This document shows, one piece after another, positions 37,672 to 54,846 of a stretch of DNA of 64,000 bases. Source of the DNA: Pseudomonadota bacterium (GTDB taxonomy: Bacteria > Chloroflexota > Ktedonobacteria > Ktedonobacterales > JADMIN01); contig JAJPIU010000026.1 in the NCBI GenBank assembly GCA_021324535.1, forward strand, positions 14,093 to 78,092, written 5' to 3'. Every line of letters starts with the position of its first letter. Within the stretch, counting starts at the first letter, position 1. The position numbers and the translations under genes were made by a program. Under the pieces are notes generated by a model. The model made no database searches and had not been told where the DNA came from. It saw only the letters and a list, made by a program, of their open reading frames with translations.

Positions 37672-37705
37672 GAGGAACCTCCTCCCCTGTCGTGCGAACG
37701 CTCAG

Positions 37706-39565: not shown

Positions 39566-39587
39566 GTGTCTCTGCCTCCGGCCAGCG

Positions 39588-41972
39588 CTAGCTTTGCCAT
39601 CTGGTTGAGATGACCGGCGCATCGGCGTTTTTCCCTCTGGGCTGTGAGTGCCCGTCGCCGTTCCTATAGGAGGCAGCGCCTGTGGAACCATAGTGCGATG
39701 CGCCAGCGGTCAACCCCTGACTCACACGTAGGGCCAGTTCACGTATGGCGACGTCGAGTCGATCTGGATCCAGACGCCCGTCTGCGCCCATGATTCCCTC
39801 GAAGATCGGGCGATTGGGCAGGTGTTCGGGCAGCGTCGAGTAGAAGTTGCACGACCTGATAGCCAGCAGGCTCTGCAAATCGTACATATCAGGGTTGTGG
39901 TTCATCTTGAAGTCGGCCAATGCGGCGAAGAGGTGTTGCGAGGTGATTGGCGGCAGATCCGTGTCGCTCAGGGTTCCACGATCTTCCGCATCTTCGCAGG
40001 CCAGTTCCATCGCCCGTCTGACGACGATCTCGATTTCGGCGCCTGTCAGACCCATTGCTGCCGACCGCTCGGCAACGCTGGTGAACTTCGCCAGGTCTTC
40101 ACGTGTTGGATCCATCCGGTCGCCGATCTTGTGGCCACTTTGTTGCAGATCGCCACCATAGGTGATACTGAGCGTGTTTCCGCTCTGCTTGCGGATGGCG
40201 TCGGGCATCGTAGCAAAGATGCGACGCGACTCGTCGCCATCGGGGGCAAGCAACGGCACGACGCGATCAAATCGCCGCAGGAGCGCGTCATCGAGATAGT
40301 CTGAGCGATTGGTCGCAGCGACCCACATGATGCGCCCACGATTCGACGCCTTTGACATCTCTTCGAGGATGCGCGCGAACATGCGTGCGCTGACGCCACT
40401 GTCGCCATTCTGGCCAGAGTCGCGCCGCCCCATCGCTTGATCGATCTCGTCAATGAAGACAATCACAGGATGCAGATCATGCAACAGGCCCAACACCATA
40501 TCGAGGTTGCGCTCAGAACTGCCGACCCAACGATCTTGAATGTTACGCATTTTGACGAGATTGAAGCCGCCCTCAAACGCCAATGCTTCAGCGATGATCG
40601 TCTTTCCGGTTCCTGGAGGCCCGGCCAGCAGCAACCCACTGGGGATGAGGGGTGAGTGACGACCTTGCAACATCAACGCTGTGCGCCTGCGCAAAAACTG
40701 CTTGAGTTTTTCCAGACCGCCGATCTCGTTGAAGCCACGCTCCGGTGGGACAATCTCCAGGAGTTGTGAGCTTTGCGACTGAATAACCTCGGCTTTTTCG
40801 CTACGGACATCTAGCGGCGTGAGAACCTCCAGCCGATTTTGTTGACGGCATTGCATGATGATACGACGATTCAGGTTGTCAATGTCCATCAGGCGCATCC
40901 CCTGTGTAGAGCGTGCAAGGATTCGCTGGAGAGCTGGCCCATCGGCCAATTGCCCCTTGGCAAAATCAGGCGACAGCGCAGCCAGCCGATACCGGTTGTC
41001 AGGGTGTTGCGCCTTATGGCGGATATAGGCGAGTCGCTCATCATCGTTGGGAAGCGGCACACGGATGCTGCGACAACCGCTGCCCTCGGCGCTGATGCTC
41101 GCAGGAAGCTGGCCGATGTTAGTTGTCAGCAAGACGATCACATTGTTCGTCATACGGATCACCGGGTCGAGCGCCCAACTTTGCAACACTTCCAGCGCCT
41201 GCAATTGCTCTGTTGTTCCCTGCCCTTCCCCTACATGAAAAGGTGTCAGCTTCTCGGCGTAATCGAGAATGACTGCGATGGGAGCCTGAACGGGGGGATA
41301 TGGCGCGCTCCGTTGAAAGGCTTGCTGCTCGCTTATGCCATCGGGGTAGTATTGCTGGCGTAAGAGATGACCCAGAATCTTCAGATGATCAGGCACACTA
41401 CGGGGCAGATCAATCTCTTGTCCTTCGACCCGCTGGCCGGGTGGACGCACCCCTTGTTGTCCTTGTTGTCCTTGTTGCCCTTGCTCCGCTGGGCGCCGCT
41501 GAAGTCCCAATGATTCCATCGCCGTGCGCAGAAAGCGGCCCGCCGATGTTTGCGCGCCTAACTCGGTAGCGAGTGGTTGACCGATCCCCAGATGCTGACG
41601 ATCTTCGGCGAGCAGCCCGCTCGCCAGTGTATAGGTGTAGGTGGCCTGACAATTCAGCTCTTCGTAGAGCAAATCATGCAGGTACTCACGGAAAACACGC
41701 GGCTGTGTTTGCACGCCAACCACATCCCACAAGGGAAGGTGTCTACTATTCTTTTCCTGTTCTTCCTGGCGGCTGAGGTTAAGGACGAAGTCATTGATGT
41801 TGAAATGAATGACGAATTGCCGGGCGATGCGCCCGCGATAGAGCGTCACAAACTCTTGCGCCCACAACGGGCGTCTGAATGGAGGAACCTGTGGATGAAC
41901 CTGCTGACCACCTTGAGCCATCGCTTGCCCCGGCTGCGGCGGATAGGGATACTGTGGAGGTGGGTACACCAT
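39588..41972 (-). CDS. two-module AAA+ ATPase (degenerate D1, canonical Cdc48/Vps4-like D2), operon gene 8
   Basis: ATG 41972 has SD AAAGGAGC. The N-terminus is P/Q/Y-rich. The D1-like region has no P-loop (IAVILDYAEKL, VIVLLTTNIGQL, RSIRVPLPNDDER). D2 has GPPGTGKT (40599-40622), VIVFIDEID, VAATN, and DDALLRRFD. A QGQQGQQGQQG insert is encoded by a 9-bp tandem repeat at 41452-41478. Confidence 0.85.
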   Translation of the reverse strand: MVYPPPQYPYPPQPGQAMAQGGQQVHPQVPPFRRPLWAQEFVTLYRGRIARQFVIHFNINDFVLNLSRQEEQEKNSRHLPLWDVVGVQTQPRVFREYLHDLLYEELNCQATYTYTLASGLLAEDRQHLGIGQPLATELGAQTSAGRFLRTAMESLGLQRRPAEQGQQGQQGQQGVRPPGQRVEGQEIDLPRSVPDHLKILGHLLRQQYYPDGISEQQAFQRSAPYPPVQAPIAVILDYAEKLTPFHVGEGQGTTEQLQALEVLQSWALDPVIRMTNNVIVLLTTNIGQLPASISAEGSGCRSIRVPLPNDDERLAYIRHKAQHPDNRYRLAALSPDFAKGQLADGPALQRILARSTQGMRLMDIDNLNRRIIMQCRQQNRLEVLTPLDVRSEKAEVIQSQSSQLLEIVPPERGFNEIGGLEKLKQFLRRRTALMLQGRHSPLIPSGLLLAGPPGTGKTIIAEALAFEGGFNLVKMRNIQDRWVGSSERNLDMVLGLLHDLHPVIVFIDEIDQAMGRRDSGQNGDSGVSARMFARILEEMSKASNRGRIMWVAATNRSDYLDDALLRRFDRVVPLLAPDGDESRRIFATMPDAIRKQSGNTLSITYGGDLQQSGHKIGDRMDPTREDLAKFTSVAERSAAMGLTGAEIEIVVRRAMELACEDAEDRGTLSDTDLPPITSQHLFAALADFKMNHNPDMYDLQSLLAIRSCNFYSTLPEHLPNRPIFEGIMGADGRLDPDRLDVAIRELALRVSQGLTAGASHYGSTGAASYRNGDGHSQPRGKNADAPVISTRWQS

Positions 41973-41992
41973 GATGTGCTCCTTTCTGAAGA

Positions 41993-42274
41993 TCAGCCAC
42001 AAAGCGCGATCTGATTGACTCGTACTTCTAGCCCAACCTCGGCGCAGGCAGCCAGGAAGGCTTCTATCTGCTTCCGTGCGCCCTTGAAATAGATGCTGCC
42101 ATCGGGTAATATCCGCACGACAAAGCGGTCTATCTCCTCCGGCTCGTCGACGAACGGCCCCCTTGGCAGCGGCGGGATCAATCGCCCTGTGGCGGACGCT
42201 TCATCGGATGGCGCGGCTTGTGGCGCTGGTGTGGTGATGGCCGTTGTTTGCCTTACTCTGGTACGTTTACCCAT
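41993..42274 (-). CDS. 93-aa hypothetical protein, operon gene 7
   Basis: ATG 42274 has a weak SD. The N-half is disordered (TTPAPQAAPSDEASATG) and the C-half is compact (DRFVVRILPDGSIYFKGARKQIEAFLAACAEVGLEVRVNQIALCG), ending in Gly. No family was recognised. Confidence 0.5.
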   Translation of the reverse strand: MGKRTRVRQTTAITTPAPQAAPSDEASATGRLIPPLPRGPFVDEPEEIDRFVVRILPDGSIYFKGARKQIEAFLAACAEVGLEVRVNQIALCG

Positions 42275-42355: not shown

Positions 42356-43219
42356 CTAGAGCATTGGAATCGGCTCATGCGACTGCTCACCAGTGTTCGC
42401 CATTCCGCTCGTCTGCGCGGCGAAACGCGCCTTCAATTCACTATTTTCTCGCCGCAGCCTGTCATTCTCCTGTTTGAGCGTGCCCAAATCGCGCTGCGAC
42501 GAGGTTTGGTGCGTTCTGAGCCGGGCAATATCCTCCTGGGCAGCCGTCAGTTGGCTTTGTAGCTGGCTCTTCTCGAATTGCTCATGTGTCAGGGCGGTGT
42601 TCATGTCAGCGAGTTCGTCTTGCATTTTCTGCTGTGTACGTTGCAGCGCGTCACTCATTGTGGCGAGTTGCGCTTTTGCGACGTCTCGCTCGCCGGTCAG
42701 TGTGCTCACCTGCCGGTTCAACGACGAGATTTGCTGTTGGTATTGCTGGATCGCCGCGCTTGGCTTGGCTGCGCTATTGGCCTGCATCTGCCTGATTTGG
42801 GCGTTATAGGCGTCTCGCTCGCGCTGAAAACTGGCTCGTTCGTTTTCTAGTTGCGCTTTCCAGGCATCGTTCACGCGCTGAATATCCTGCGTGGCGACGC
42901 TATCTGCGCCACTATCGCCTGGTATTGCGCCAGGGATGTGAACAGCTACGCCAAGCACATCAGGCGCAATGTTGCGCAGTGTCCCCAGATGTGGCATCGC
43001 CGCGCGAAGATTGTAGCGCGCTGTCGGGCTATCAAAGTCGAGGCGCTGGAACCGTTGGTCAGCAGACAACTGTCTCACAACCTCGCTCACTCCCTCGTCG
43101 TTATCAATTTGCCTGCTTGCCTGCACCAGATCGGCGTTGATGACCGCCTCAGTGATTGGCCCACTATCAGGATGAATATACAAGCGAAACTGCCGCGTCA
43201 GCGCCTGACCGCGTATCAT
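42356..43219 (-). CDS. globular N-domain plus ~170-aa coiled-coil protein, operon gene 6
   Basis: A strong SD AAGGAGGGG lies before ATG 43219. The C-terminal two-thirds is heptad-like and Q/E/R/L-rich (NAQIRQMQAN...ISSLNRQVSTLTGERDVAKAQLATMSDALQRTQQKMQDELADMNTALTHEQFEKSQLQSQLTAAQEDIARLR...). Confidence 0.7.
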   Translation of the reverse strand: MIRGQALTRQFRLYIHPDSGPITEAVINADLVQASRQIDNDEGVSEVVRQLSADQRFQRLDFDSPTARYNLRAAMPHLGTLRNIAPDVLGVAVHIPGAIPGDSGADSVATQDIQRVNDAWKAQLENERASFQRERDAYNAQIRQMQANSAAKPSAAIQQYQQQISSLNRQVSTLTGERDVAKAQLATMSDALQRTQQKMQDELADMNTALTHEQFEKSQLQSQLTAAQEDIARLRTHQTSSQRDLGTLKQENDRLRRENSELKARFAAQTSGMANTGEQSHEPIPML

Positions 43220-43260: not shown

Positions 43261-43914
43261 CTACGGATTGCCGACATTTTGCGCATTGCCATATTCAATG
43301 CGCGCAACGCGAATGTCGGTTGTGTTGTACCCGCCAAAGCGAAACGTGACAAGATCGCGTCCATCATAGGTGACACCCTCTGGAAGCCAGTCAAACAAAT
43401 ACAATGGGCGTTGAATATCGTTTTGGAACGCATTAGGGCGAAAACGCACGCCAAACGCGAAACGCGCATTTGGATACGCCTGACGTAGACCTGCGATCTC
43501 ACCTCCCCAGCGCCCAAGCTGACTTGTCGCAGTGGGATTCAATGTTGGCTGGGTCGAGATCTCATAGCTCACGCGGTAGCGCAGCATATAGGCGCCGTTT
43601 GGCCCTGGATTCGGGTCACTCAGCAGTATCTCAGCCCCATCGATCAGCCTGTGTCGGAGCATCTGCTCGATGTCGGAGCAAATCATCGCGATCAGATCCT
43701 CTTGATCTCTGCCATAATCATCGGGAACATCGAGCGCGGCGAAGAGGTCAATGCCTGCCTCTGTCACGAGCTTCAGTAAATCTTCGTGCAGATACATAGC
43801 GGCCTGCTCGGTATTGGTGAGGGCGCTAACCGCCACACCTACCTTCGCGTTCACTGCGTTATAGACATTTACTTTGATGCCTACACCTGCGCCACCTCCG
43901 CCTGGACTTGTCAT
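43261..43914 (-). CDS. 217-aa soluble hypothetical protein, operon gene 5
   Basis: SD AAGGGAGAA lies before ATG 43914. The composition is coding-like and there is no TM. I recognise no motif. Confidence 0.65.
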   Translation of the reverse strand: MTSPGGGGAGVGIKVNVYNAVNAKVGVAVSALTNTEQAAMYLHEDLLKLVTEAGIDLFAALDVPDDYGRDQEDLIAMICSDIEQMLRHRLIDGAEILLSDPNPGPNGAYMLRYRVSYEISTQPTLNPTATSQLGRWGGEIAGLRQAYPNARFAFGVRFRPNAFQNDIQRPLYLFDWLPEGVTYDGRDLVTFRFGGYNTTDIRVARIEYGNAQNVGNP

Positions 43915-43960
43915 AGCCGTTCTCCCTTGCTATCGTTCACTGCCGTTCGCTGGCGCTTCG

Positions 43961-43996
43961 AGATGTTCAAGATGTTCAAGATGTTCAAGATGTCAA
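43961..43996. repeat. 9-bp tandem repeat x4 (AGATGTTCA; last unit degenerate) inside the largest intergenic gap of the operon
   Basis: agatgttca agatgttca agatgttca agatgtcaa. On the operon strand this is TGAACATCT x3, 47-82 nt upstream of the gene-5 start (43914). Confidence 0.9.
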
Positions 43997-44032: not shown

Positions 44033-44776
44033 TCAGGGCTGCTGTTGTCCTCCCTGGTTTCTCTGATTCGGCGTATTTTGTGGGTTGTTTGCGCGTGGGT
44101 GGAAGAACCAGGACAGTGGCGGGATGCTACGTAGCACCCCCAAGAAACTGCTCGCTTGTCGCACATTAACCGCATACTGATCCGCCGGAACGACTGCTTG
44201 CGGCGGGCGATCCCGGTAGAGCGCGCCAGTGATGGTCATCGCCAGCCCGATCCCGCCAAATGCGAGTGAGGGCACATCCAGGCGCTGGCGCAACACCGCC
44301 AGCGCCATCAGCGCGGCCACCGTCGAGCCGACAATGACCAGAAACCAGCGGATGGTCTCGACCTGTGTTATCATGTTCAGCCAGGTGAGCGAACGAGGTG
44401 TAACGATGGTGTTGCCGCCGATGCCCTGCGAGACCCCAAACGCCAGCATAATGACCCACAAGAACAGATACACAAGCCAGATGAGTATCACCTGCAACAC
44501 GCCAGGGAGGGAATCGAGCGAGCACAGCGCGCCAAACCTGCACGCATAGTGGTCAAAGTAGATTTCCAGTCCATAGCCCAGCGCGACAAATGGCGTGAGG
44601 GAAACCGCCGCCAGCAACGGCCAGCGCGGATACAAAAAGCCATGTCGCTGGAGAACTTGTTGGTTCGGTCTCGCAGGTTGCTGCTGTCGCTGTTGCTGCT
44701 GGTATTGCTGTTGTGCTTGTGCGCCAAAGCCGCCGGGCAAGGGCTGATTTGGAGGCTGTTGCATGCTTTCCCCCAT
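44033..44776 (-). CDS. polytopic membrane protein with Gln-rich N-terminus, operon gene 4
   Basis: Start ATG 44776 or 44764 (the latter has GGGGGA upstream). The N-terminus is QQPPNQPLPGGFGAQAQQQYQQQQRQQQPARPNQQ, followed by 4-5 hydrophobic helices. It lies 10 nt after the gene-3 stop. Confidence 0.7.
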   Translation of the reverse strand: MGESMQQPPNQPLPGGFGAQAQQQYQQQQRQQQPARPNQQVLQRHGFLYPRWPLLAAVSLTPFVALGYGLEIYFDHYACRFGALCSLDSLPGVLQVILIWLVYLFLWVIMLAFGVSQGIGGNTIVTPRSLTWLNMITQVETIRWFLVIVGSTVAALMALAVLRQRLDVPSLAFGGIGLAMTITGALYRDRPPQAVVPADQYAVNVRQASSFLGVLRSIPPLSWFFHPRANNPQNTPNQRNQGGQQQP

Positions 44777-44786
44777 TTCGTGATAA

Positions 44787-47660
44787 CTACTCGTGCCTCA
44801 GGAATGCGATTAGCGCCCACTCATCACTCTGGCTGAGCAGGCGAGTCGCGCCACCGGCCATTCCCAGCCGATCTATCGCGTGCAAATTGGCGGCATCAGC
44901 GCCAACGAATGCGAAATCGTGTCCCGGAGAGCCATACATTGGCGTCGCATGCTTGGCGACTTCCTCCCACATCTCGCGGGCGTTGGCGTTCTGCTGCGGA
45001 TCGAGCGCTGGGCCAATCGCGGCGACTTCCCGATCCAGATAGCACAGGAACGATTGGAGCCAAAACTGGTGGATTGCCTCTAAGAATTGGTCGTTGCTCA
45101 TCAAAAGCACGCCCCCTCCAGCGTGATGGAAATACTGGCGCAGGCGTTCGTTGATCTGCTGGTAGTTGGTGTGCCATCCCTCACGTGGCCGAGTAACTCG
45201 CCGGTTCGCAAATGTGGCATACACCGGTTCAAGCTCGTGTCCGCGTGGCAATGGCGGACGACGCAACTGTGCGCCGTTCGCGACGATAATGTCGTGAACA
45301 CCAACCGGGCCGTCGAACAGTTTCTCGCTGGTGGTGTGGGCGCGCTCGTCCGCTTCATCGCTTGCGCGTCGCAGCCGCTCCGCCCAATGTTCCAAGGTGT
45401 TGCGCATCTGGCGAATCGCGTAGCGCAGGCGTGTGATGACGGCGGCGCGAAGTTGACTCTCACGCTGGATGGACTGCGCCCGAATGCGAAGCGCCAGAAA
45501 CTCGACCTGATCACGTCGCGCTCTTTCAAGTTGTTTGAGTCCGACTTTGTAGTAGAAAGCGCTTCCCGCGCCCAATATGCCTACTGCCCCTGCAATTGAG
45601 AGGGCTGCGCCGATAGGCGTATTGGTCAACTCTGCCGGAAGTTCGACATTGGTCAGACTTGCCAGGGCTGGGACGCTTGCCACGGAAGCAGTCGCGAGCG
45701 TCGCCAATGACGGCAGATGCGTGCGATAATATCTCACGCGATTGGCCAGGCGCCTGCTGGTGCGCTCCAGATTCGCAAGACGTGGATCGACACGACGCGG
45801 CGTCTGGTTATTCCCCGATCCACCAGGCTGATTTCCCCCAGGTAGGGGAGACGCCGGATTCATACCTGGCGCAGGCGTAGCGCCAGGCGCATTTCCTGCG
45901 GCCTGTCCTTGGGCGGTGTTGGCTCCGCCTGGAGGAGCGCCCCGAACGGTCGGGCCGACAATTTGTTGTGCGCCATTCTGATCAACCACAGTCTGGTTGA
46001 CATTTTCCCAGCGTTGGTCGTTTGCCAATCGTTCAAATTCGGCAATGCGATATCTGATTTCGTCGTCCGCTTCTTTGCGCCAGTAGCTCGCAGTGTCACC
46101 AAGTTCGCCAATGGCGTCGTCGAGCGCCTGCACATAGGCGCGCGCCTCAACCCAGGAGTTGCGATCTCGCAGCAATAGCTCATTGGAGATCAAACCGATC
46201 TGCCGCCTGATCTCCGCCTCGGCCTGGCGCCATGCCTCCTGTGCGGCGGCGGCCCATAGTTCAAAGCGATCATTGGCAGTTTCAAACGCGACCTCCACTT
46301 GATCATGCCAGATAAGCTCAGGATCTATCCGGGGCGCGGCGCGCTGAAGTCGTCGCACGCGCTCCTGAATGACGCCGTAGTCGAGTATGCCCTGCATGCG
46401 CTTTTGCGCCACTTCTACTGCCTGAAGAGCATTGCGCGCCGCCTCTGGTAGACGCCGTGGATCGGGCCAGGGTTGCATGCCACTGAGCGGGACAGTCGCG
46501 GTGGGGCGGGTGGGAAAATGCTGCAACCAGGGGATGATGGTATGCTCCATCAACTGCAGGGCGGAGTGTTGGCGATCCCGCACATTGCGCATGGCTCCAT
46601 CCAGGTCCTGTGTTTGTTGCGCCCAATCTCTGAGCAACTCTGCAATGTCGTGTGAGGAGCAATAGAGTTCGGCCTGCGCGCGCGGAAAACGCACCATCGC
46701 TACCCCCAGCGTTCCATCCGATGTCTCTCGCCTCCCCATCGTTGCTTGTCCAGCAATCTGCTGAAATACTGGTGTCTCTGTTATGCCCGTCGCTATCAAC
46801 GCAAAAACCGCCTCCGCCATAAGATAGCGTATACGTGGCTCCTCGTATATACCACCGGTTTGCTGTGCTTGCGCAAAGAAGAGCTGAAGCACCCTCGGTG
46901 GCATGGGTGGCGCGCCAGGGGAAGCTGGGAGCGCCTGCACCCAGGCGTCATACAGGGCATCCTGCAACTGCGGGGTAATTGCCGGAGCCGTGGCGACTAA
47001 CGTGGCGGGGTTCATCCCCGGAAGAGCTTCCTGGCCTTGCAGTTGGCCTAGATTTGGATTGAATTGGTTCGGGGGAGCAGGATCGCTCAAGACATAGGTA
47101 ATCAGCGTGTCACCAGTTGCGCGCGCTCCAAGTGTGCTCAGGAAGGTCGCCAGCGTGGCTTGAACCTGAGACGACACAGACACCAAAAAAGGATCGGTGG
47201 CGCTCCCCACGACGATAATTTGTGCGCGTTGGGTCGGAACCATATACCCGGCAAGTTCGATGTTTTCCTTGACTTCACGAGCATTTTGCACTCGTATGAG
47301 CGCACGTCTCAGCGTATCATGTAGTGGTTCTTGTGCCCTGGCATTGCCAGCGTTGCCTGCATTGCCTGCATTGCCTGCATTGCCTGCATTGGCCGCATTC
47401 CCGCCTATATTCGCATGGCTCATTGCGCCAGCGTTCGCGATTCTGGCAGGCAATTCGCGAATCTGCGCCGATCCGCCAGTGGCGTCTACCTGAATCGCAA
47501 CGACGCCTTCGAGCAGGCGCACGTCGAGGTTGGCCATCAGGTCTTCGAATGAGCCTATGACATGATCTGCTTGATAGACGCGCCCGCTATGATCGCCCAA
47601 AAAGATGACGATGGTTGGGCGAAAGGACGGGGCTGGAAGTGGCGCTTGCGCGTGATTCAT
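44787..47660 (-). CDS. 957-aa divergent paralog of the tubulin-like protein lacking the GGGTGSG signature; hydrophobic hairpin; operon gene 3
   Basis: SD AAGGGG lies before ATG 47660. The N-terminus PTIVIFLGDHSGRV...VVAIQVDATGG parallels PAVVITLGTTSS...VAIVMIDTDIS of gene 2. AQIIVVGSATDPFLVSVSSQVQATL replaces AQVYVVSFLGGGTGSGIVSDIAVMI. A (GNA)n insert is present. The hydrophobic region LATLATASVASVPALASL...IGAALSIAGAVGILGAGSAFYY lies at about 45545-45725. Confidence 0.75.
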   Translation of the reverse strand: MNHAQAPLPAPSFRPTIVIFLGDHSGRVYQADHVIGSFEDLMANLDVRLLEGVVAIQVDATGGSAQIRELPARIANAGAMSHANIGGNAANAGNAGNAGNAGNAGNARAQEPLHDTLRRALIRVQNAREVKENIELAGYMVPTQRAQIIVVGSATDPFLVSVSSQVQATLATFLSTLGARATGDTLITYVLSDPAPPNQFNPNLGQLQGQEALPGMNPATLVATAPAITPQLQDALYDAWVQALPASPGAPPMPPRVLQLFFAQAQQTGGIYEEPRIRYLMAEAVFALIATGITETPVFQQIAGQATMGRRETSDGTLGVAMVRFPRAQAELYCSSHDIAELLRDWAQQTQDLDGAMRNVRDRQHSALQLMEHTIIPWLQHFPTRPTATVPLSGMQPWPDPRRLPEAARNALQAVEVAQKRMQGILDYGVIQERVRRLQRAAPRIDPELIWHDQVEVAFETANDRFELWAAAAQEAWRQAEAEIRRQIGLISNELLLRDRNSWVEARAYVQALDDAIGELGDTASYWRKEADDEIRYRIAEFERLANDQRWENVNQTVVDQNGAQQIVGPTVRGAPPGGANTAQGQAAGNAPGATPAPGMNPASPLPGGNQPGGSGNNQTPRRVDPRLANLERTSRRLANRVRYYRTHLPSLATLATASVASVPALASLTNVELPAELTNTPIGAALSIAGAVGILGAGSAFYYKVGLKQLERARRDQVEFLALRIRAQSIQRESQLRAAVITRLRYAIRQMRNTLEHWAERLRRASDEADERAHTTSEKLFDGPVGVHDIIVANGAQLRRPPLPRGHELEPVYATFANRRVTRPREGWHTNYQQINERLRQYFHHAGGGVLLMSNDQFLEAIHQFWLQSFLCYLDREVAAIGPALDPQQNANAREMWEEVAKHATPMYGSPGHDFAFVGADAANLHAIDRLGMAGGATRLLSQSDEWALIAFLRHE
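47341..47403 (-). repeat. imperfect 9-bp tandem repeat x7 (GCATTGCCT) encoding (GNA)n within gene 3
   Basis: gcattgcca gcgttgcct gcattgcct gcattgcct gcattgcct gcattggcc gcattcccg. The translated sequence is NIGGNAANAGNAGNAGNAGNAGNAR. Confidence 0.9.
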
Positions 47661-47704: not shown

Positions 47705-50689
47705 CTAGAGATCAGACCCATTGGGGCCATAGCCACCCTGCGGCCCTGGCTGCGCCCAATTGGGAGAATTAGGCGCGTTTTGCGTATTAGGCGGAGGCGT
47801 GTTCTGGCGCGCAGCGCCTCCTGGCGGGAAATAGCCGCCCTGTGGCCCAGATTGTGGCCCAGATTGTGGCTGAAAGCCACCTGCTGGCCCTCGCGGCATG
47901 CCGGGTGGTGGCGCCCAGCCAGGCTCGTTTGCTCGCTGAAACTGTGGCCGGATGACACGTAAAACCACTGATGTGTTTCCACTGACATCTCTGCCAAAGA
48001 CCAGTCGCTCCATCTCGCCCGAGCTATGCACAGGCGCCTTATTCATGCCATAGCTGCCCGGTTGGCCATCACCATACCAGGCGTATTGGTGGCGTAAATA
48101 TTCGGCCATCGCACTGTTCGCGGAACTAAAAAAATCAGGAATGGTGCGAATGCTGATGCCATGTTGCGCATAGTTGACCTGCAGACGATGCGGATCGCTT
48201 TCGACGATGACACGCGCCTGCGGCACACGCTGCGTCAGTGGGACTGCCGCATTGAGCGCGCTCTCCAAGATGGGCCTTTGCCCCGCAGAGTCGCGCCAGT
48301 TCATGCCCAGGTAGAGGGTAGGCAACAGCGCGCTCGAGCCAGCCAGCCACAGCCCTGGCTCATACGTGACCAACTCCCCTAAAACGCCTTTGAGGTTCAC
48401 GATGTGTCGCTCGAGGTAAGGCTGTGATTTGCGTTGCGCTGCGCTCACCGCGATATTTTCTTCGGCGGCGATACCTAGTTCCAGGAGGTCGAAAAGATTC
48501 TTACGCTTCAGCCAGGCGTTATACATCATTTCGAAGTATTCCACCACCTTTTGCGGCACCTGCGCGGCGCGTTCTTGGGCGAGGTCTTGCTCGGTAGCTG
48601 CGCCGTCAGCGTCACGGCGGGCGGCATTGACAAAGGCAATGCACTCTGCAACCTTACTCCGTAGCGCGTTGGCGACATCAAAGGTATCCCGATGTGTACA
48701 ATCGCCCAGAGCCAGATTCTCATTGGCAGTTGTCGCCTCGCCTGGTGGGATGACGTCGGCGATGGCGATGTCCATATTGAGAATGCCAATCGTGGCGGCG
48801 CGGAAGACCCCTTCCATCGCAGGAATAAAGGCCAGACCTTGCGCCTTCGCTTTATCGGTGAACTTGCCCAGGTCAAAGAGATGACGTTGGTGTTGGTGGG
48901 GGCGCTCAAGCTTGCCAAGCCAGGCGGCGCGCGCATAGCCACGCTCGCGTAACTCTGCGGCGCGTTCCGAAGCACGCGCGCCCGCCAGCCAATCGCCTTC
49001 CGCCTGCAAAAGGCTCGCCACCTCAGCTATCAGTCGGTCGAACAACTGCGCGAGTTGTGTTGCGCGCGTGTGTTGGTAATTGGCTCGCTGAGTTGTGTTA
49101 TACGCTTCTGCGACGGCGGCAGGGATATCGCGCTTGAATATTCCTGGGATTTTGTCCTCAAGAAATGTAGGCAGCAGGCTATGGTCGAGTCCATGCTCCA
49201 GTTCAACCGGTCTTCCTGGCACGCCTTGTGTCAACTCCCGGCCAGCGCGCAGGCGATCACGTGCCTCTTGATACTCAGCAAGCAGCCGCTCATAATGGAG
49301 AATCTTGCGCCCTTGCATGCCCAATGGGATGTTGAGACCTAATTGCTGCGCTTCGGGAATGGTGCGAATGCGCGCCTCTTCGCGGTCGCCCGCGCGATTA
49401 ACCACCTGAACAATCTGCTGGTTCGTGTCGCCAAGTGATCGTTGCAGTTGTTGCCACAGATAGTCTCGCTGTCGCGGGGGGGCATCCTCAAACTCGCTCG
49501 CCTGATACTGGCGTGGCTGACTAATCGTCAGGTCGTTGGGAGCGGGTGTTCCCTGAACGACCGCCGCTATGCCTCTCCATTTGTTTACCCACTCATTGCG
49601 TTGAGCGTCGGATATTGGGAGTGAAGGAGGCCGCTGCCCGATGAACTCCGGAAGTCCCAGCATATATGAGGCGGCTATCTCGGCGAAGGCGCGCCGAGCC
49701 TCTTCGATGGGGAAACGCACCTCATACGGGCACGAAGCGCTAAAGTTGGTTGGCAGGTATTGATCATCGCTGCCCGCCAATACCGTGCGGTCGGGCGCTT
49801 CGGATCGCTCGATGTCGCCCACGCCAGAGGCGTCGGTGATGCGCTGGAAGAGGTCGAGTCCGACGATGCGCGCGTTCTCCTCAACACTATTGAGATTGGT
49901 GCGCCCCAACAGATAGATTTCATTGAAGATCGGCGCGTCTGGCACAAAGTATGAATGCGCCAGCAAATATTTCTCATATGGGCCGCTGACGCCACTGATG
50001 ATCTGCGTTGCCTGTCCATGCGCCATGATTTCGAGCAAAGCGGCGGTGGCGTTGCTCTTGCGCCAGCTTTCTGTGTTGGCGTTGACACCAGGCATGCTGT
50101 CGCCCGGCAAAATGCCGAAGAGCACCAGGCGCTGCTGGCGCTGTTCCCCGATCAACATCTGGCGAATCATCACGGCAATATCGGAGACAATGCCGCTGCC
50201 TGTGCCACCCCCCAGGAACGACACCACATAGACCTGCGCGCCCAGGGAACGCACCTCATTCTCTCGCCCGGTCAGTTGCGAAACAGACGCCAGCGCCGCA
50301 CGCAATTCCTTTTCCACTTTATCGCGGTCATAACACAGCGCGACATGCCCATTGTTGCGGATGCCACCAGCGCCATAATCAAAATATTGGGGCAACTTGG
50401 TGGGAATAAAGGTATGATTGGCGATAGCGCGTGGCAGTTCGTCGGTGTAGGTGGCCCCAGCGGGGACTGCGATCTGCGCCTTGTAGATGTGAAACGCGCC
50501 ACTGTGCTGATCAAGAAAATCCTGAAATCGTGGGCGTGATATGTCAGTATCAATCATCACAATCGCCACAGCGTCGCGGTCATCTTGCTCCAACCCCAGC
50601 AGGTGGTAGCACAGTTCATTTGCCGCTATCGAAGATGTGGTGCCCAGCGTGATGACGACCGCTGGCGTCCGAATCGCTTTGGATCGCAT
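47705..50689 (-). CDS. 994-aa tubulin/FtsZ-superfamily GTPase-like protein (Tubulin_2-type), operon gene 2
   Basis: SD GAAGGG lies before ATG 50689. The tubulin signature GGGTGSG is at aa 160-166 (nt 50192-50212, verified codon by codon). YGAGGIRNNG at aa 105-114 is T3-loop-like. About 700 aa of helical extension follow, then a P/G/Q/Y-rich tail (partly a 12-bp tandem repeat at 47841-47870). Confidence 0.8.
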   Translation of the reverse strand: MRSKAIRTPAVVITLGTTSSIAANELCYHLLGLEQDDRDAVAIVMIDTDISRPRFQDFLDQHSGAFHIYKAQIAVPAGATYTDELPRAIANHTFIPTKLPQYFDYGAGGIRNNGHVALCYDRDKVEKELRAALASVSQLTGRENEVRSLGAQVYVVSFLGGGTGSGIVSDIAVMIRQMLIGEQRQQRLVLFGILPGDSMPGVNANTESWRKSNATAALLEIMAHGQATQIISGVSGPYEKYLLAHSYFVPDAPIFNEIYLLGRTNLNSVEENARIVGLDLFQRITDASGVGDIERSEAPDRTVLAGSDDQYLPTNFSASCPYEVRFPIEEARRAFAEIAASYMLGLPEFIGQRPPSLPISDAQRNEWVNKWRGIAAVVQGTPAPNDLTISQPRQYQASEFEDAPPRQRDYLWQQLQRSLGDTNQQIVQVVNRAGDREEARIRTIPEAQQLGLNIPLGMQGRKILHYERLLAEYQEARDRLRAGRELTQGVPGRPVELEHGLDHSLLPTFLEDKIPGIFKRDIPAAVAEAYNTTQRANYQHTRATQLAQLFDRLIAEVASLLQAEGDWLAGARASERAAELRERGYARAAWLGKLERPHQHQRHLFDLGKFTDKAKAQGLAFIPAMEGVFRAATIGILNMDIAIADVIPPGEATTANENLALGDCTHRDTFDVANALRSKVAECIAFVNAARRDADGAATEQDLAQERAAQVPQKVVEYFEMMYNAWLKRKNLFDLLELGIAAEENIAVSAAQRKSQPYLERHIVNLKGVLGELVTYEPGLWLAGSSALLPTLYLGMNWRDSAGQRPILESALNAAVPLTQRVPQARVIVESDPHRLQVNYAQHGISIRTIPDFFSSANSAMAEYLRHQYAWYGDGQPGSYGMNKAPVHSSGEMERLVFGRDVSGNTSVVLRVIRPQFQRANEPGWAPPPGMPRGPAGGFQPQSGPQSGPQGGYFPPGGAARQNTPPPNTQNAPNSPNWAQPGPQGGYGPNGSDL

Positions 50690-50736: not shown

Positions 50737-53247
50737 CTAAACTGACCAGCTAGACCAGGAATCTGGCGACGCCTCTGTGTTGGTTTTCTTGTGTCGTTTT
50801 TTCTTCTGGCTGGGGATATTCACTGGCGGGTCACCCCAATCTGCGTCCAATGACGAATTGGCCGAGCCTCCTTGGCTTGGCTTTCCGCCCGACCCAGTAG
50901 AAGAGAAGGTATACTCACTGCGATCGTTGTTCAGCCCGTTTGTGGGGAGTGGCTTCTTGGGCAAGGGATCACCCGTCAACATGCGCCAGAACTGATGGTT
51001 GCGGCGATTTCTACGCACCTTGATGGTGTGGCGCCCAAAGATCAACATCGCGCCGTCTTCATCACCAAAGGCTTCGCGCGAGGTGCGCCAGTCGGGATGC
51101 AGGAACCAGCGCAGGATGCTCCGTGAGCGCGCCCTTTTGAAGTCGCCGGTTGCCTCTGAGTCAGACGGGTCTCTGGGAATGCGCTGCCATTGACCCTGTG
51201 GGCGCGGGGTCAGGGGACGTCCGATGAATAGGAAATAGATCAGCCAGGCGAGGAACGGATAGACGACAACTGTCCAGAACCAGGCCTTGACCTCCTGCAC
51301 AGGCGTCGCAGGCAATACCGTCAGATGAACCTGGCGTGTGGTGACACCGAAATCGCCGTGACTATCAGCGAATGTTCCTTGCGTCTGGAAGGTAATGGTA
51401 TAATCGCCGCTCACCGGCGCCGGGAAAATCAAGACGAAGTGGCCTGAGCCTTCATCAGTGATCTGCACGGGGACGCTTTTATTCGTACCCTTGCGCGTGG
51501 CCACGCCTGCTACCGTCGCATTGGCATACAACTGATTGTGCAGCGTCACCTCGCCCTCAAGGGCGGCCGAGGGGCGCGGCGGCTGGTTGCCCAACGGCCA
51601 ACCACTCAACCATGAGAGCAACGGCAGACTATAGAGGAATTGCAAGCCGGGATCCCAGGAAGTGACTGTTGCGTTGACTGTACTTGTCGTTGGCGCAGGC
51701 GGTCGCCCACTCAGCAGCAGCGGTGTGGGGAACAGTTCCAGCCGGATATTGCGGTCGGCGCTGGAGATCGGCACTCCGCTGACCTGGGTCACGTCTATCG
51801 CGATGCGATACACACCCGGCGGCGCGCTCTGGGGGATATTGACGTTGACCTGATAGACCCCTGGGCTGACCTGTGTGAAATTCAGCCCGATCGTGTAAGG
51901 CGCGCCGTTGGACGTCTGTCCTGTAAAACTCAGCGTGCCAGCGATAGTATATTGTGTGCCGATGACCGTTGCGCCATTGGCCGTCAGCGCCGCCGTGATG
52001 CTAAACGGCTGGCCCAGGGGCAACGCGGCGACGCTCGATGTTGGCTGCGTGATGGTCAGTTGTAACGTTGAAAGGATCAGGCTGTCTACGAGATACCGTC
52101 CCTCACCGGTCACATTGATTGTCCAGGCGCCCGCCTGCACACCCAATGAGCCACCATCAATCGAGAAGATGGCATAGTGGGGGTCGTTGGCGACGAAGAC
52201 CCCCGCGACCGCCGGAGGGATCACTTCCCCGGAGGGTGTGGTCAGCGTCACGCGTGTCGCCACCTGATCTTTCACAACGATCACATCCAGATGTTGCACA
52301 TAGGACGGCACAATCAGGTCTTGCGAGTCGGTTGCCCCGCTTAGTGTCGTGGGCGCCACAGTCGGGCCGAGTGTACGATGATTGCGAAGGGCGAAGATGT
52401 CCACGAAGAACGGCGCAATATTGAGCGCATCGGGGGCGCCGCTCACCGGCCCCTGGCTGTCATCGTAGAAGTTGCCTGATGTCGCAGCAGAGAGATTTTG
52501 CAAAAAAGGGTGAAACGTCTGATCGGCGCCGAGCGCGATAGTATCGATAGGGAAATGCGCCTGTTGAAACTTTGGCAGCAATTCCTGCTGGATGGCGTTG
52601 ATCTGGTCGGTGGTATCTGGATCGGGAGTTCCATCGGTGAGCAGAATCACCGAGCCAGTGCGCCCATTTCCGGCGGTGGCCGCTGTGAGCATGCTGAGCG
52701 CCTGGTTGAGCGCATCATAGGTTGGTGTGGCAGCATCGGGCGCACAGTCGTGTGAGTCGCTGGTGATGGTCTCTTCCAGATGGGCGCGCGCGGAGAGGGT
52801 GGCCATATCAGCGGGTTGCGCCCAGACCTGGGCAGTCTGGAAGTTGTGTGGGCCACCCCGAGCGCCGGTACTATTGTCCAGCCCGATCACTCCAATATAA
52901 TCGTTGGGGCCACTCAGGGCAATATAGGCGTTCGCCGCAGAGCATCGCAACCCGTCGGGATCATTGACACTCATGGATCCCGACATATCGAGCACGATTA
53001 CTGTCACCAACCCCGCCGTGGCCCGGCTCGTTCGTTGTTGATGCGCGCTCGTGGCCACCTGCTTCGCGAGGGAAGGCAAGGGCGCTGCGGACACCTGTGG
53101 GGCGAACACTGTCTGTGCGCCCAGCAGACAGATACACAACAACGTAATAGTCAAGGTTCCCGCCAGGGAGGCGCTTGCCCACGATGCGTGCGGCGCTCGC
53201 TCGTCAGAAGGCGCCAACACATTCCATCTGTAAGATGATCGCGCCAT
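50737..53247 (-). CDS. bitopic surface protein: extracytoplasmic vWA (MIDAS) domain plus Ig-like repeats, TM, basic cytoplasmic tail; operon gene 1
   Basis: ORF to 53307; the likely start is ATG 53247 (SD AAAGGA). The signal-anchor is LAGTLTITLLCICLLGAQTVFA. The vWA domain has VIVLDMSGSMS (DMSGS = nt 52975-52989), GSVILLTDG and TIALG. Several beta-rich repeats follow. TM is AWFWTVVVYPFLAWLIYFLFIG, and a ~200-aa K/R/S-rich tail completes the protein. Confidence 0.8.
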   Translation of the reverse strand: MARSSYRWNVLAPSDERAPHASWASASLAGTLTITLLCICLLGAQTVFAPQVSAAPLPSLAKQVATSAHQQRTSRATAGLVTVIVLDMSGSMSVNDPDGLRCSAANAYIALSGPNDYIGVIGLDNSTGARGGPHNFQTAQVWAQPADMATLSARAHLEETITSDSHDCAPDAATPTYDALNQALSMLTAATAGNGRTGSVILLTDGTPDPDTTDQINAIQQELLPKFQQAHFPIDTIALGADQTFHPFLQNLSAATSGNFYDDSQGPVSGAPDALNIAPFFVDIFALRNHRTLGPTVAPTTLSGATDSQDLIVPSYVQHLDVIVVKDQVATRVTLTTPSGEVIPPAVAGVFVANDPHYAIFSIDGGSLGVQAGAWTINVTGEGRYLVDSLILSTLQLTITQPTSSVAALPLGQPFSITAALTANGATVIGTQYTIAGTLSFTGQTSNGAPYTIGLNFTQVSPGVYQVNVNIPQSAPPGVYRIAIDVTQVSGVPISSADRNIRLELFPTPLLLSGRPPAPTTSTVNATVTSWDPGLQFLYSLPLLSWLSGWPLGNQPPRPSAALEGEVTLHNQLYANATVAGVATRKGTNKSVPVQITDEGSGHFVLIFPAPVSGDYTITFQTQGTFADSHGDFGVTTRQVHLTVLPATPVQEVKAWFWTVVVYPFLAWLIYFLFIGRPLTPRPQGQWQRIPRDPSDSEATGDFKRARSRSILRWFLHPDWRTSREAFGDEDGAMLIFGRHTIKVRRNRRNHQFWRMLTGDPLPKKPLPTNGLNNDRSEYTFSSTGSGGKPSQGGSANSSLDADWGDPPVNIPSQKKKRHKKTNTEASPDSWSSWSV

Positions 53248-53355
53248 CGAATCCAATCCTTTCAATAGACTGCGACGAGCAGTTCTTTCAGTGGATACTG
53301 CTTTCAATATAAAATACGATTCAGATAATGCAGGTGTTACAAATCGATTAGACGG

Positions 53356-54531
53356 CTAAATTGACGCATATGTGTGTTCGGTCGCAGGCGCCATACGAAT
53401 CCCCAATGGCTCACCGCACGCGGCGCAAGCGCCGGTTGGCGTAAGCGCACCGATCACAACCCGGCTCTGGGTGCGCTCGATGGCTAGTGCGCCGCACCGT
53501 GGGCAGCGCGTATTGGCGCTATCGGGGTCGGTAAGGCTATCCGTATAGACAAAGCGCAAACCCTCCCGCTGGCCGATGGTCTTCGTGCGCGCCAATGTTT
53601 CAGGCTTCGTTGGAGGAATATGCGTCATGAAGGCATAGGGTACATAGGTCGTCAGATGCCATGGTGTGTCAGCGCCCAGCGTCTCAACGATGCGCCCTGC
53701 CAGCCGAGCGAGATGCTCATCACTATCGTTCATAGTCTCCATGATGTTGGTCACTGTCTCGACGTGTATGCCGAACTCGTGTTGTGCACGCCGGGCAAGG
53801 GGCAACACCTCACTGATGCGATCCAGCCCACCGACCTGGCGATAGAAGCCCGTATCCAGGCTCTTGACATCCACACGATAGACATCGAGCCAGGGGCCAA
53901 GCAGGGTCAATGCCTCATGAGTGATGAGGCCATTTGTGACATACACAGTAAAGAGACCAGCCGCTCGCGCCGCTCGCGCGCTCTCCAGCGTATAGGCAGG
54001 TGTGATGCTCGGCTCGTTATGCGACCAAGCAAGCGCCTGGCAGTTCTGATCGAGCGCGAGGGCAACGGCGGCGTCAGGTGTGAGGTTTGGCTCCGTCAGA
54101 CCAGCGGCGTCACGCGCATCGCGAAAAGCAATCTCCCAGTTTTGACAGAACGAGCAACGCAGGTTGCACCCCAAGCCGCCCAGCGAGAGGGTGCGCGCGC
54201 CGGGATTATAATGAAAAACCGGTTTGGATTCCATTGTGTTGACGCTTGCCTCGGCAATCACGCCGAAAGCCGTGTTGTAGAGCGTGCCGCCGTGATTGAT
54301 TACGGCAGTGCAATAGCCAACCGCGCCATCACGCAAGAGGCATCGCCGCACGCACGCCAGACAGCGCACGCCACCCTGGGCATACCCCCCCCCCAACCGA
54401 ACAGCAGGGCGTGTGAGTTCCGTCGGCAAAGGGCGCAATGGCGTGTCTTTTTGTGAGCTGGCGCTCTGCCTGCCTGGATCGCTAGTAGGTTGCGCCGAAA
54501 ATGTAGACTTCACCACACCCCCCTTAAGCAT
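53356..54531 (-). CDS. radical SAM enzyme, AmmeMemoRadiSam-system type (PFL-activase-related)
   Basis: An N-terminal Cys-rich segment (RCLACVRRCLLRDGAVGYC) is followed by the radical SAM cluster CNLRCSFCQNW. The C-terminal zinc-ribbon-like pairs are CPRCG...CAACG. No AMMECR1 or Memo partner is adjacent. Confidence 0.75.
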   Translation of the reverse strand: MLKGGVVKSTFSAQPTSDPGRQSASSQKDTPLRPLPTELTRPAVRLGGGYAQGGVRCLACVRRCLLRDGAVGYCTAVINHGGTLYNTAFGVIAEASVNTMESKPVFHYNPGARTLSLGGLGCNLRCSFCQNWEIAFRDARDAAGLTEPNLTPDAAVALALDQNCQALAWSHNEPSITPAYTLESARAARAAGLFTVYVTNGLITHEALTLLGPWLDVYRVDVKSLDTGFYRQVGGLDRISEVLPLARRAQHEFGIHVETVTNIMETMNDSDEHLARLAGRIVETLGADTPWHLTTYVPYAFMTHIPPTKPETLARTKTIGQREGLRFVYTDSLTDPDSANTRCPRCGALAIERTQSRVVIGALTPTGACAACGEPLGIRMAPATEHTYASI

Positions 54532-54846
54532 AACCGGATGTATTTGCTCTCATGCGGCGATGGTTGGCATTATATCATATAGGTCTTCTTATCGCAAGTC
54601 GAATGGCGCATCTTCTTACCAAGTATGCCAACGGCTTTGCACATTGTCATTTTGTTCGCCATGCGATGGCCTTCAGTTAAGAGCGTTTGATGCATGGGAA
54701 ATATGTCTCCTGATGTCTCTTTCGTGTTGACCATTTTACAAAGCTCGTGGTAAACTCATTTCAGATACAAGAGAACTGAAACCATATGAACAGAAAGGCG
54801 CCCCGCTGCTTTCCATCGAATATTTAGAAAAGTGAAGGGTATAAGC

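Follow-up and report, generated by a model that had tools for sequence, protein, structure and literature searches.

A tubulin-like protein of the FtsZl1/Tubulin_2 family and its probable nucleotide-dead paralog in a conserved operon of Ktedonobacteria

TubL (tubulin-like protein, so named here) is encoded on the minus strand at 47705..50689 of a 64,000-nucleotide stretch of a Ktedonobacterales genome (GenBank assembly GCA_021324535.1, contig JAJPIU010000026.1, positions 14,093 to 78,092), referred to below as the window. It is a member of the FtsZl1/Tubulin_2 family, from a Ktedonobacteria clade with a glycine-poor T1 loop, and its first ~345 residues are shown by structure prediction to adopt a tubulin/FtsZ fold. 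Immediately downstream of TubL is the gene for a 957-residue partner, whose N-terminal domain is very probably a degenerate paralog of that of TubL, without the T3 and T4 motifs. In the favoured model, to which as a whole a probability of about 0.6 is assigned, GTP-competent TubL and its nucleotide-dead paralog would form a hetero-assembly that is tethered to the membrane and coupled to a vWA sensor outside the cell. The lineage to which TubL belongs is already known and annotated, and it is not a new branch of the superfamily; what is new in this analysis is the fold model, the conserved four-gene module in which the gene resides and the pseudo-GTPase partner.

Family membership and predicted fold

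The TubL gene has 994 codons, starts with ATG and is preceded by a GAAGGG purine tract. An earlier reading of the sequence alone had described its product as a GTP-binding member of the tubulin superfamily far outside FtsZ, TubZ and BtubAB, and the motifs on which that reading was built were all recovered. The T4 tubulin signature GGGTGSG (aa 160-166, 50192..50212; this and all other TubL coordinates are on the minus strand) is exactly where it had been placed in the 994-residue frame. In the AlphaFold2 (AF2) model described below it lies between S4 and H4, and the classical Tubulin/FtsZ GTPase model PF00091 aligns locally around it, over aa 150-179. The pattern [SAG]GGTG[SAT]G occurs a single time across the six-frame translation of the 64-kb window, for a roughly estimated chance expectation of ~0.01. 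The loop YGAGGIRNNG (aa 105-114, 50348..50377), which had been proposed as the T3 loop, directly precedes helix H3 in the model and is T3-like. The first strand, VVITLGTTSSIAANE (aa 11-25), and the sequence SNATAALLEIM (aa 212-222) were also present as described, the latter overlapping a WRKSNATAxLLE motif (aa 209-220, 50030..50065) within a long helix (204-230) that follows S5.

Conservation was assessed in an alignment of 73 homologs with 33-73% identity to the query. Invariant residues include G160-G164 of the signature and F158 just before it, G106, R111, N112, G114 and H115 at the T3 place, and R210, S212, N213, A216 and E220 of the WRKSNATAxLLE motif. Because these residues are invariant, the motifs are considered to be under selection and not the product of chance. 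Strand S2 ends in a DTD motif, which may be compared with NTD in FtsZ.

The profile search that the sequence-only reading had suggested gave a clear answer. The Pfam model Tubulin_2 (PF13809, “Tubulin like”) matches TubL over aa 22-287 with 81.8 bits against a gathering cut-off of 27 (E 7.4e-23), whereas PF00091 remains below threshold, with 14.2 bits vs 33, around the signature. The Pfam scan found no FtsZ_C, Tubulin_C or any further domain in TubL, and no NCBIfam model matched, including those for FtsZ. Sequence and profile searches of the PDB with TubL yielded nothing significant, with FtsZ chains appearing at E 0.5 or worse. A displaced FtsZ C-domain was considered at aa 735-774, which weakly resemble the beginning of the C-terminal domain of S. 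aureus FtsZ (E 0.5), and rejected because this stretch is helical in the model.

The protein database contains 159 TubL homologs. Among the matches listed, all 120 carry PF13809, nearly all of the named sources are Ktedonobacteria (Chloroflexota), and the closest homolog is 70% identical. Several relatives, including the Ktedonobacter racemifer ortholog, are already called “tubulin-like domain-containing protein” or “Tubulin like protein” in NCBI and UniRef. The family was defined as FtsZl1 (FtsZ-like 1) by Makarova and Koonin in 2010, who described proteins of ~1000 aa with a coiled-coil or helical middle part and an α-helical C-terminal domain, encoded in operons together with vWA and membrane proteins (PMC2875224). 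FtsZl1 was equated with Tubulin_2, and taken as the outgroup for a phylogeny, by Santana-Molina et al. in 2023 (PMC9871819). In addition to passing PF13809, TubL shows the properties by which FtsZl1 was described, apart from the glycine-rich T1 loop of most members: the GGGTGSG signature is invariant in the 73 sequences and the fold is recognized by Foldseek; the secondary structure of the AF2 model reproduces the ~1000-residue architecture, with a small β-sheet also in the C-terminal module; and the operon places a vWA gene 47 nt before TubL and a gene for a membrane protein, p247, after it. The placement of TubL within the superfamily, and outside FtsZ, TubZ and BtubAB, is therefore upheld by the pass with PF13809, the failure with PF00091 and structural matches that, among those listed, are all to the superfamily.

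The same results bear on the idea that TubL is a bona fide division protein of the FtsZ type. TubL has the fold and the T4 signature in common with such proteins and nothing else: it fails the canonical FtsZ domain tests (PF00091, FtsZ_C and the FtsZ equivalog models), has no significant FtsZ match in the PDB by sequence or profile, and has no division or cell-wall genes in its context. Moreover, FtsZl1 proteins typically coexist with a canonical FtsZ (PMC2875224). This explanation is effectively refuted.

The AF2 model of TubL, which was run on the 73-sequence alignment, has a mean predicted local distance difference test score (pLDDT) of 85.4 and a predicted TM-score (pTM) of 0.79, and only aa 931-994 fall below a pLDDT of 50. 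When the model was compared with the PDB by Foldseek, 106 entries matched at E <= 1e-3. Each of the 50 listed is a chain of the tubulin/FtsZ superfamily or an assembly that includes one, and the superfamily members matched include CetZ2, FtsZ, α-, β- and γ-tubulin, OdinTubulin, TubZ and BtubA. CetZ2 (4b45_A) matches with E 8.4e-7 and a TM-score by target of 0.49, S. aureus and B. subtilis FtsZ match with TM-scores of 0.50-0.51 (0.51 for the S. aureus protein), and β-tubulin (9c6r_B) matches with a root-mean-square deviation (rmsd) of 4.7 Å over 370 columns. The structural matches share 10-15% sequence identity with TubL, in agreement with the null results of the PDB sequence searches. The GTPase domain of these proteins comprises ~190 residues. 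Since the Foldseek alignments extend over 320-390 columns, with FtsZ and tubulin targets of 286-453 residues, the structural similarity runs past the GTPase domain. The sequence-only reading had hinged on the fold of aa 1-350, and the fold predicted for them is that of tubulin and FtsZ.

The N-terminal tubulin/FtsZ-like domain (aa 1-345, 49655..50689), delimited by DSSP on the model and by Foldseek, has elements that are named here after those of FtsZ from their order. It begins with S1 (10-15), H1 (17-30), S2 (41-47), H2 (53-61) and S3 (67-72), followed by the T3 loop, H3 (111-137), S4 (150-158), T4, H4 (163-182) and S5 (185-193). Next in the model come the long helix 204-230, a hairpin (238-249) and the strand NEvYLxG (257-261). 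These are followed by the helix ARIVGLDLFQRIT (269-284), the segment 285-296 with a helix at 289-296, the long strand 316-325 and then a helix at 328-344. Going by order, the elements past S5 would correspond to H5, S6, H7, T7/H8, S7 and H9. H7, T7 and the C-domain went undetected in FtsZl1 in the sequence analysis of 2010, whose authors, replying to a reviewer, gave as option (i) that they are present but diverged (PMC2875224). The TubL model suggests that H7, T7 and part of the C-domain are indeed present, but highly diverged.

The nucleotide pocket and the C-terminal two-thirds

The T1 loop is where TubL departs from most of its family. S1 and T1 of the window protein read TPAVVITLGTTSS, and the T1-equivalent loop, LGTTSSI (aa 15-21, 50627..50647), retains one of the four family glycines. 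In published FtsZl1 proteins, S1/T1 reads RPTxVIGxGGTG (supplement 2, PMC2875224), and the glycine-rich GxGGTG pattern found in most of them is not matched by LGTTSS. The sequence-only reading had a T1 region without glycines; it was right that the glycine-rich loop is absent, but G16 is nearly invariant, within a clade consensus of LG[ST]T[PS][SA]. This form of T1 is clade-wide, and even loci at only 26-30% identity have a similar loop (IGTKAS). Some published FtsZl1 members also deviate at T1, with GLGSTG or LGHTG (supplement 2, PMC2875224), and the tubulin T1, GQCGNQ, has two glycines only (alignment in PMC2875224). Judging from these sequences, the T1 deviation is a variant feature that is compatible with FtsZl1 membership. 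Because T3 and T4 are invariant, we infer that TubL retains nucleotide (GTP) binding.

It could be argued that the loss of T1 glycines has made TubL a degenerate, catalytically dead module that keeps the tubulin-like structure, and both LGTTSS in place of GxGGTG and the sub-threshold score of PF00091 point that way. However, invariance of T3 and T4 in 73 sequences that are 33-73% identical indicates selection on the pocket, and tubulins have just the two T1 glycines. A truly degenerate state is found in the partner, which has lost both T3 and T4, and this contrast argues that TubL is active. A dead TubL is consequently regarded as very improbable.

In canonical FtsZ, a T7 loop with the sequence NxDxxD completes the active site of the neighbouring subunit, and protofilaments form in a GTP-dependent manner. 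The sole candidate for a T7/H8 segment in TubL, DASGVGDIERSE (aa 285-296, 49802..49837), follows the helix 269-284 as T7 follows H7. It has the consensus DASGVGxxExS, with G291 and E294 invariant, and Glu294 is a possible catalytic acid at the T7/H8 place of the model.

The rest of the protein had been seen as a helical extension of ~700 aa. Helices do prevail over aa ~405-780, but the remainder beyond the N-terminal domain amounts to ~650 aa and includes an α/β module at ~781-930. The largely helical region (~aa 350-780, 48350..49642) has long helices at 405-442, 458-482, 522-570 and 672-727 in the model, and the C-terminal α/β module (~aa 781-930, 47900..48349) has strands at 789-796, 826-829 and 835-845. 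Three strongly conserved motifs are found here: PHxHQRHxFDL (aa 596-607, 48869-48904) in the helical region, and DPHRLQxxYxQHxIS (aa 832-846, 48152-48196) and PVHSSGExERLV (aa 885-896, 48002-48037) in the α/β module. Conserved histidines number at least five across the three motifs and, from the sequence, may mark a metal or catalytic site. The three motifs are absent from the most divergent subclade (loci L043-L050), and no match to a known family was found for them.

TubL ends in a tail rich in P, G, Q and Y (aa 931-994, 47708..47899) that is predicted to be disordered (pLDDT 33-41). In the homologs, 0-193 residues (median 49) follow the last conserved position, R914, and 56% of tail residues are P, G, Q, N, S or Y, vs 31% over the whole proteins. 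The tail had been likened to the flexible partner-binding tail of FtsZ. Its disorder and biased composition do resemble the FtsZ linker, but the tail is hypervariable, and no conserved C-terminal peptide like that of FtsZ was found among the tails of TubL homologs. It behaves like an intrinsically disordered linker, and there is no support for a docking peptide of the FtsZ kind. Within the tail, SGPQSGPQ is encoded by an exact 12-nt tandem repeat of 2.5 copies at 47841-47870, which fits a tail whose length evolves through slippage of repeats.

The operon and a probable degenerate paralog

The gene neighbourhood was compared in 52 related loci (47 from one-per-species genomes and 5 from metagenome contigs) by iterated hidden Markov model searches. 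Homologs in the same order were found for the vWA gene in 42 loci, for TubL in 47, for the partner in 39 and for p247 in 32, and from these counts the core of the operon is a four-gene module encoding a vWA protein, TubL, the partner and a small membrane protein. The intergenic gaps within the operon are 10-118 nt. Several metagenome-assembled genomes (MAGs) hold two TubL loci.

All genes of the operon are on the minus strand. The vWA protein (856 aa, 50737..53307) is a membrane protein with matches to VWA_3, VWA_2 and VWA. It has an anchor at aa 46-64, an intact metal ion-dependent adhesion site (MIDAS) motif, DxSxS, at aa 107, beta-rich repeats and a second transmembrane (TM) helix at aa 677-695, followed by a C-terminal tail of 160 aa. 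The vWA part presumably faces outward, with the 160-residue tail in the cytoplasm. The partner gene (44787..47660), which has no Pfam or NCBIfam hit, starts 44 nt downstream of TubL and is separated by 10 nt from p247 (44033..44776), a membrane protein of 247 aa that has 3-4 TM helices and is rich in Q and P at its N-terminus.

The relationship between the partner and TubL emerges from comparison of sequence profiles. Aligned by hhalign with the TubL alignment, a set of 35 syntenic partner orthologs gave a probability of 64% (E 6.6e-5) and a set of 68 partner representatives gave 86-91% (E 1e-6 to 5e-6). When only the N-terminal 400 residues were used, the probability rose to 94% (E 1.4e-7). 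Column-reversed controls gave 0.3-0.6% (E 0.1-0.18). The N-terminal alignment pairs partner aa 14-192 with TubL aa 8-195, in register from S1 to S5, matching RPTIVIFLGDHSG of the partner with TPAVVITLGTTSS of TubL, VAIQVDA with VAIVMIDTD, and AQIIVVGSATDPFLVSVSSQVQATL with AQVYVVSFLGGGTGSGIVSDIAVMIRQML. The partner sequence RPTIVIFLG resembles the canonical FtsZl1 sequence RPTxVIGLGGTG, and an RFP motif after the long strand is common to TubL and the partner. In the AF2 model of the partner (pLDDT 83.7, pTM 0.78), secondary-structure elements succeed one another as in TubL over the first 350 residues. The paralogous domain comprises aa 14-192 with confidence and possibly extends to ~350. The C-terminal halves of the two proteins, between which hhalign found no similarity, are unrelated, so that the paralogy is confined to the N-terminal domains.

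None of 68 partner sequences contains the tubulin signature, and the position of the T3 motif is occupied by a disordered insert. The best-conserved motif of the partner, AEAxFALxATGIT, lies at an H7/T7-like place. Beyond the N-terminal domain, the partner consists of long helical hairpins, with aa 650-701 forming a hydrophobic stretch. An (NAG)n run, GNAGNAGNAGNAGNAGNA (partner aa ~88-106), is encoded at 47341-47399 by a 9-nt tandem repeat, GCATTGCCT, of 6.6 copies with 90% matches; it lies in a segment that is predicted to be disordered (pLDDT 41-52), opposite the T3 region of TubL.

The partner family is small: an exhaustive HMMER search of 1.84 billion proteins yielded 115 representatives (50% identity level), where word-indexed searches, with a single sequence or with a 35-sequence profile, gave two proteins each. 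It also diverges much faster than TubL, with 16-27% identity to the query in most homologs vs 33-41% for TubL. In the 2010 study, the large neighbours were assigned to uncharacterised families B1-B9 (PMC2875224), among which a nucleotide-dead paralog went unrecognised.

Further genes, most of them accessory, flank this core. A radical SAM gene of the AmmeMemoRadiSam type (53356..54531; TIGR04337, 233 bits vs 220) ends 48 nt before the vWA gene and is possibly the first gene of the transcription unit; a promoter-like site is found upstream of it, at 54597-54569. Downstream of p247, after a gap of 118 nt that includes a near-perfect 9-nt tandem repeat (TTCAAGATG, 4.1 copies, 43957-43993), is the gene for p217 (43261..43914), a 217-residue protein that matches no family in Pfam, NCBIfam or PADLOC. 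It is followed after 41 nt by cc287 (42356..43219), encoding a 287-residue coiled-coil protein with coiled-coil-type matches only. A gap of 353 nt separates cc287 from a downstream block (36427..42002) that encodes an 804-residue AAA+ ATPase (AAA804), a 661-residue TM/helical protein (p661) and a 414-residue TRIP13-like AAA+ protein. AAA804 has a CDC48/PAN-like AAA domain and is IetA-like in PADLOC, and the 414-residue protein is a TRIP13 match in the same library (E 3.6e-83). Neither a HORMA protein nor a cyclase of the CBASS type (cyclic oligonucleotide-based antiphage signalling system) was seen. Among the 52 loci, homologs were found for p217 in 17, AAA804 in 9, cc287 in 8, radical SAM in 6 and p661 in 4. 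The radical SAM gene is upstream of vWA in 6 related loci. Of the 9 loci with an AAA804 homolog, 8 have it after the tubulin operon; p661 is found after the operon in 4.

Two other loci of the window may be mentioned. Remnants of a BREX (bacteriophage exclusion) system are found at 57694-59447 on the minus strand, where a 303-residue open reading frame (ORF) corresponds to the C-terminal half of BrxL only (model positions 373-674 of 675) and overlaps a 282-residue ORF with BrxA-like and weak BrxB-like matches. PglZ, PglX and BrxC were not seen in the ORFs scanned nearby, and the remnants look like a decayed or rearranged defence locus. Between these and the operon, a divergently oriented gene on the plus strand (54832-57435) encodes an 867-residue protein with ~18 predicted TM segments, no Pfam or NCBIfam match and no homolog in the related loci.

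Assembly and biological role

GTPase activity, pairing, membrane tethering and a biological role are what we infer for TubL in the favoured model. TubL would bind and hydrolyse GTP in a tubulin-type pocket and pair head-to-tail with the nucleotide-dead partner, forming either a one-site heterodimer or a short alternating polymer, with the active site completed by the AEAxFALxATGIT loop of the partner or by E294 of TubL. The hydrophobic helical hairpin of the partner, p247 and the vWA tail would together tether the assembly to the membrane on its cytoplasmic side. With the MIDAS-containing vWA domain and the beta-rich part directed outward, events outside the cell might be coupled to GTP-gated assembly inside.

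Such a pair of one active and one altered subunit recalls the pairing logic of α/β-tubulin and BtubA/B. However, α-tubulin still binds GTP, whereas the partner of TubL appears to be without a nucleotide site altogether. With FtsZ, CetZ, TubZ, BtubA/B and tubulin, TubL has in common the fold of aa 1 to ~345 and the T3 and T4 motifs, but it differs from these characterised proteins by its low sequence identity, the lack of FtsZ_C or Tubulin_C domains and the ~650 additional residues. From FtsZl1 as described, TubL is set apart by its LG[ST]T[PS][SA] T1 loop in place of GxGGTG, by an operon in which library scans found no P-loop GTPase, OmpA or kinase gene, by the nucleotide-dead paralog in that operon, and by a model that suggests H7, T7 and part of the C-domain.

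Makarova and Koonin originally proposed a function in membrane remodelling (PMC2875224). Along these lines, TubL could be a cytoskeletal GTPase that polymerises with itself like FtsZ or TubZ and remodels the cytoplasmic membrane, for instance during hyphal growth, branching or sporulation of these filamentous bacteria, using the vWA and membrane proteins as anchors. A fold that matches past the GTPase domain, an invariant acidic residue at the T7/H8 place, an operon that is rich in membrane proteins and conserved across Ktedonobacteria, and weak matches of the partner model to bacterial dynamin-like proteins (E 0.26) would all fit, and polymerisation is found in all characterised members of the superfamily, an argument made in PMC2875224. 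On the other hand, there is no recognisable FtsZ_C or Tubulin_C domain, and the ~650 extra residues could hinder lateral and longitudinal contacts. An obligatory nucleotide-dead paralog favours hetero-assembly over a homopolymer, and the TIR fusions and mobile-element neighbours of some relatives, as well as the several copies in some genomes, are ill-suited to a housekeeping cytoskeleton. Self-polymerisation of TubL is considered doubtful.

The TIR fusions were found among the matches listed, where three clusters of TubL homologs (P0093, P0098 and P0106) have N-terminal TIR domains. Two of these loci were inspected (P0098 and P0106; L051:2802-6098 and L052:1131-4466), both on short contigs and both without vWA and partner genes. 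In L051, a phage-type integrase gene and a Tn3-like DUF4158 gene are immediately upstream of the TIR-fused gene. These relatives hint at an immune role.

Operons of tubulin and extracellular-vWA genes in multicellular bacteria were predicted by Kaur, Burroughs, Iyer and Aravind in 2020 to be conflict systems with DO-GTPases and GAP1-N2 (PMC7159879). The TubL operon resembles them in several ways: a tubulin-domain protein with a C-terminal helical extension is combined with a membrane vWA protein whose vWA part is outside; the hosts are multicellular and filamentous; TIR effector fusions occur among TubL relatives; and there are two tubulin-type genes, as in the firmicute versions (PMC7159879), the second here being degenerate beyond recognition by Pfam. 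Chloroflexi were listed for GAP1-N2 systems in general, while the tubulin theme was said to be restricted to firmicutes and actinobacteria (PMC7159879).

In the same study, such tubulins are regarded as NTP-dependent multimerising elements of conflict systems (PMC7159879), and TubL might accordingly be a nucleotide switch or scaffold that does not polymerise and, like STAND NTPases, oligomerises once to activate an effector, either TIR or, in this operon, possibly a membrane-inserting partner. The TIR-TubL fusions, which stand alone without vWA or partner genes, and weak matches of the partner hairpins to the α-pore-forming toxins SmhB, AhlB and MakA (E 7e-3 to 0.2, probability up to 0.66) are consistent with this idea. 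However, with TM-scores of 0.08-0.24 and an rmsd that exceeds 30 Å, the similarity to toxins may reflect helical content only, the PADLOC defence library gives no match, and there is no experimental precedent for a tubulin-fold switch of this kind, all of which makes a pure switch unlikely. The long hairpins of the helical part of the partner, with a hydrophobic tip that could insert into the membrane, likewise recall the bacterial dynamin-like protein BDLP, SynDLP and the ClyA family of α-pore-forming toxins. Yet these comparisons have E-values of 7e-3 to 0.35 (SmhB 7e-3, BDLP 0.26), TM-scores of 0.08-0.24 and rmsd above 20 Å, and the partner has no dynamin GTPase domain. In terms of the models, the resemblance is at most one of helical architecture.

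Several results weigh against the hetero-assembly of TubL and its partner and against its reading as a sensor. BLASTP of TubL against the partner finds no similarity, and Foldseek with the partner model returns no tubulin or FtsZ, its best matches being weak ones to long helices; because both methods fail, the paralogy rests on profile comparison and topology. Three of the four family T1 glycines are lost, and, from the sequence, the nucleotide affinity of TubL could be altered. T7 and the C-domain are assigned in the model solely from the order of elements, without superposition. PADLOC-DB 2.0 matches none of vWA, TubL, the partner, p247 and p217, its matches at the locus being confined to the downstream AAA+ proteins (TRIP13 and IetA models); the operon has no obvious effector, and the wider flanks consist of housekeeping genes. 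No Walker A motif is present in the radical SAM protein, vWA, TubL, the partner, p247, p217 or cc287, and the only P-loops near the operon are those of the two AAA+ ATPases. There are no GAP1 or FNIII Pfam matches at the operon (presence of GAP1 models in the Pfam set was unchecked), and the vWA protein has only sub-threshold Ig-like matches, to Filamin and Ribophorin_II_2nd. Since it has no P-loop GTPase and no GAP1 match, the TubL operon is not a member of the DO-GTPase/GAP1-N2 system as defined. Finally, the literature searched contained no biochemical data on any FtsZl1/Tubulin_2 member; for experimental or defence-linked work it gave two comparative-genomics papers and the outgroup phylogeny only.

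For the role of the hetero-assembly, the TIR fusions, the MAGs with two loci, the fast divergence of the partner and the downstream AAA+ genes lean towards conflict or sensing. A sensor/effector conflict system of the type predicted for tubulin-vWA operons of multicellular bacteria falls a little short of even odds, while membrane remodelling or morphogenesis is held more tentatively. A bolder version, which should be taken as speculative and rather improbable, is that two tubulin-fold proteins, one GTP-competent and one a pseudo-GTPase with a membrane-inserting helical hairpin, form an obligate pair that is wired to the extracellular vWA sensor and serves immunity or conflict between cells as a membrane effector gated by GTP. 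If true, this would be a bacterial counterpart of the α/β-tubulin principle, with one exchangeable and one dead site, and the tubulin fold would serve as an immune switch instead of a cytoskeleton.

FtsZl1/Tubulin_2 is among the most divergent branches of the tubulin/FtsZ superfamily, and sixteen years after its description, a structure, biochemistry or phenotype was not found in the literature searched. The 2010 paper left open whether the elements for polymerisation, H7, T7 and the C-domain, exist in these proteins (PMC2875224), and the TubL model bears on this question. The apparently nucleotide-dead neighbour offers a concrete two-protein system for hetero-assembly, and through the TIR-fused relatives a connection of a tubulin-fold GTPase with bacterial immunity becomes testable.

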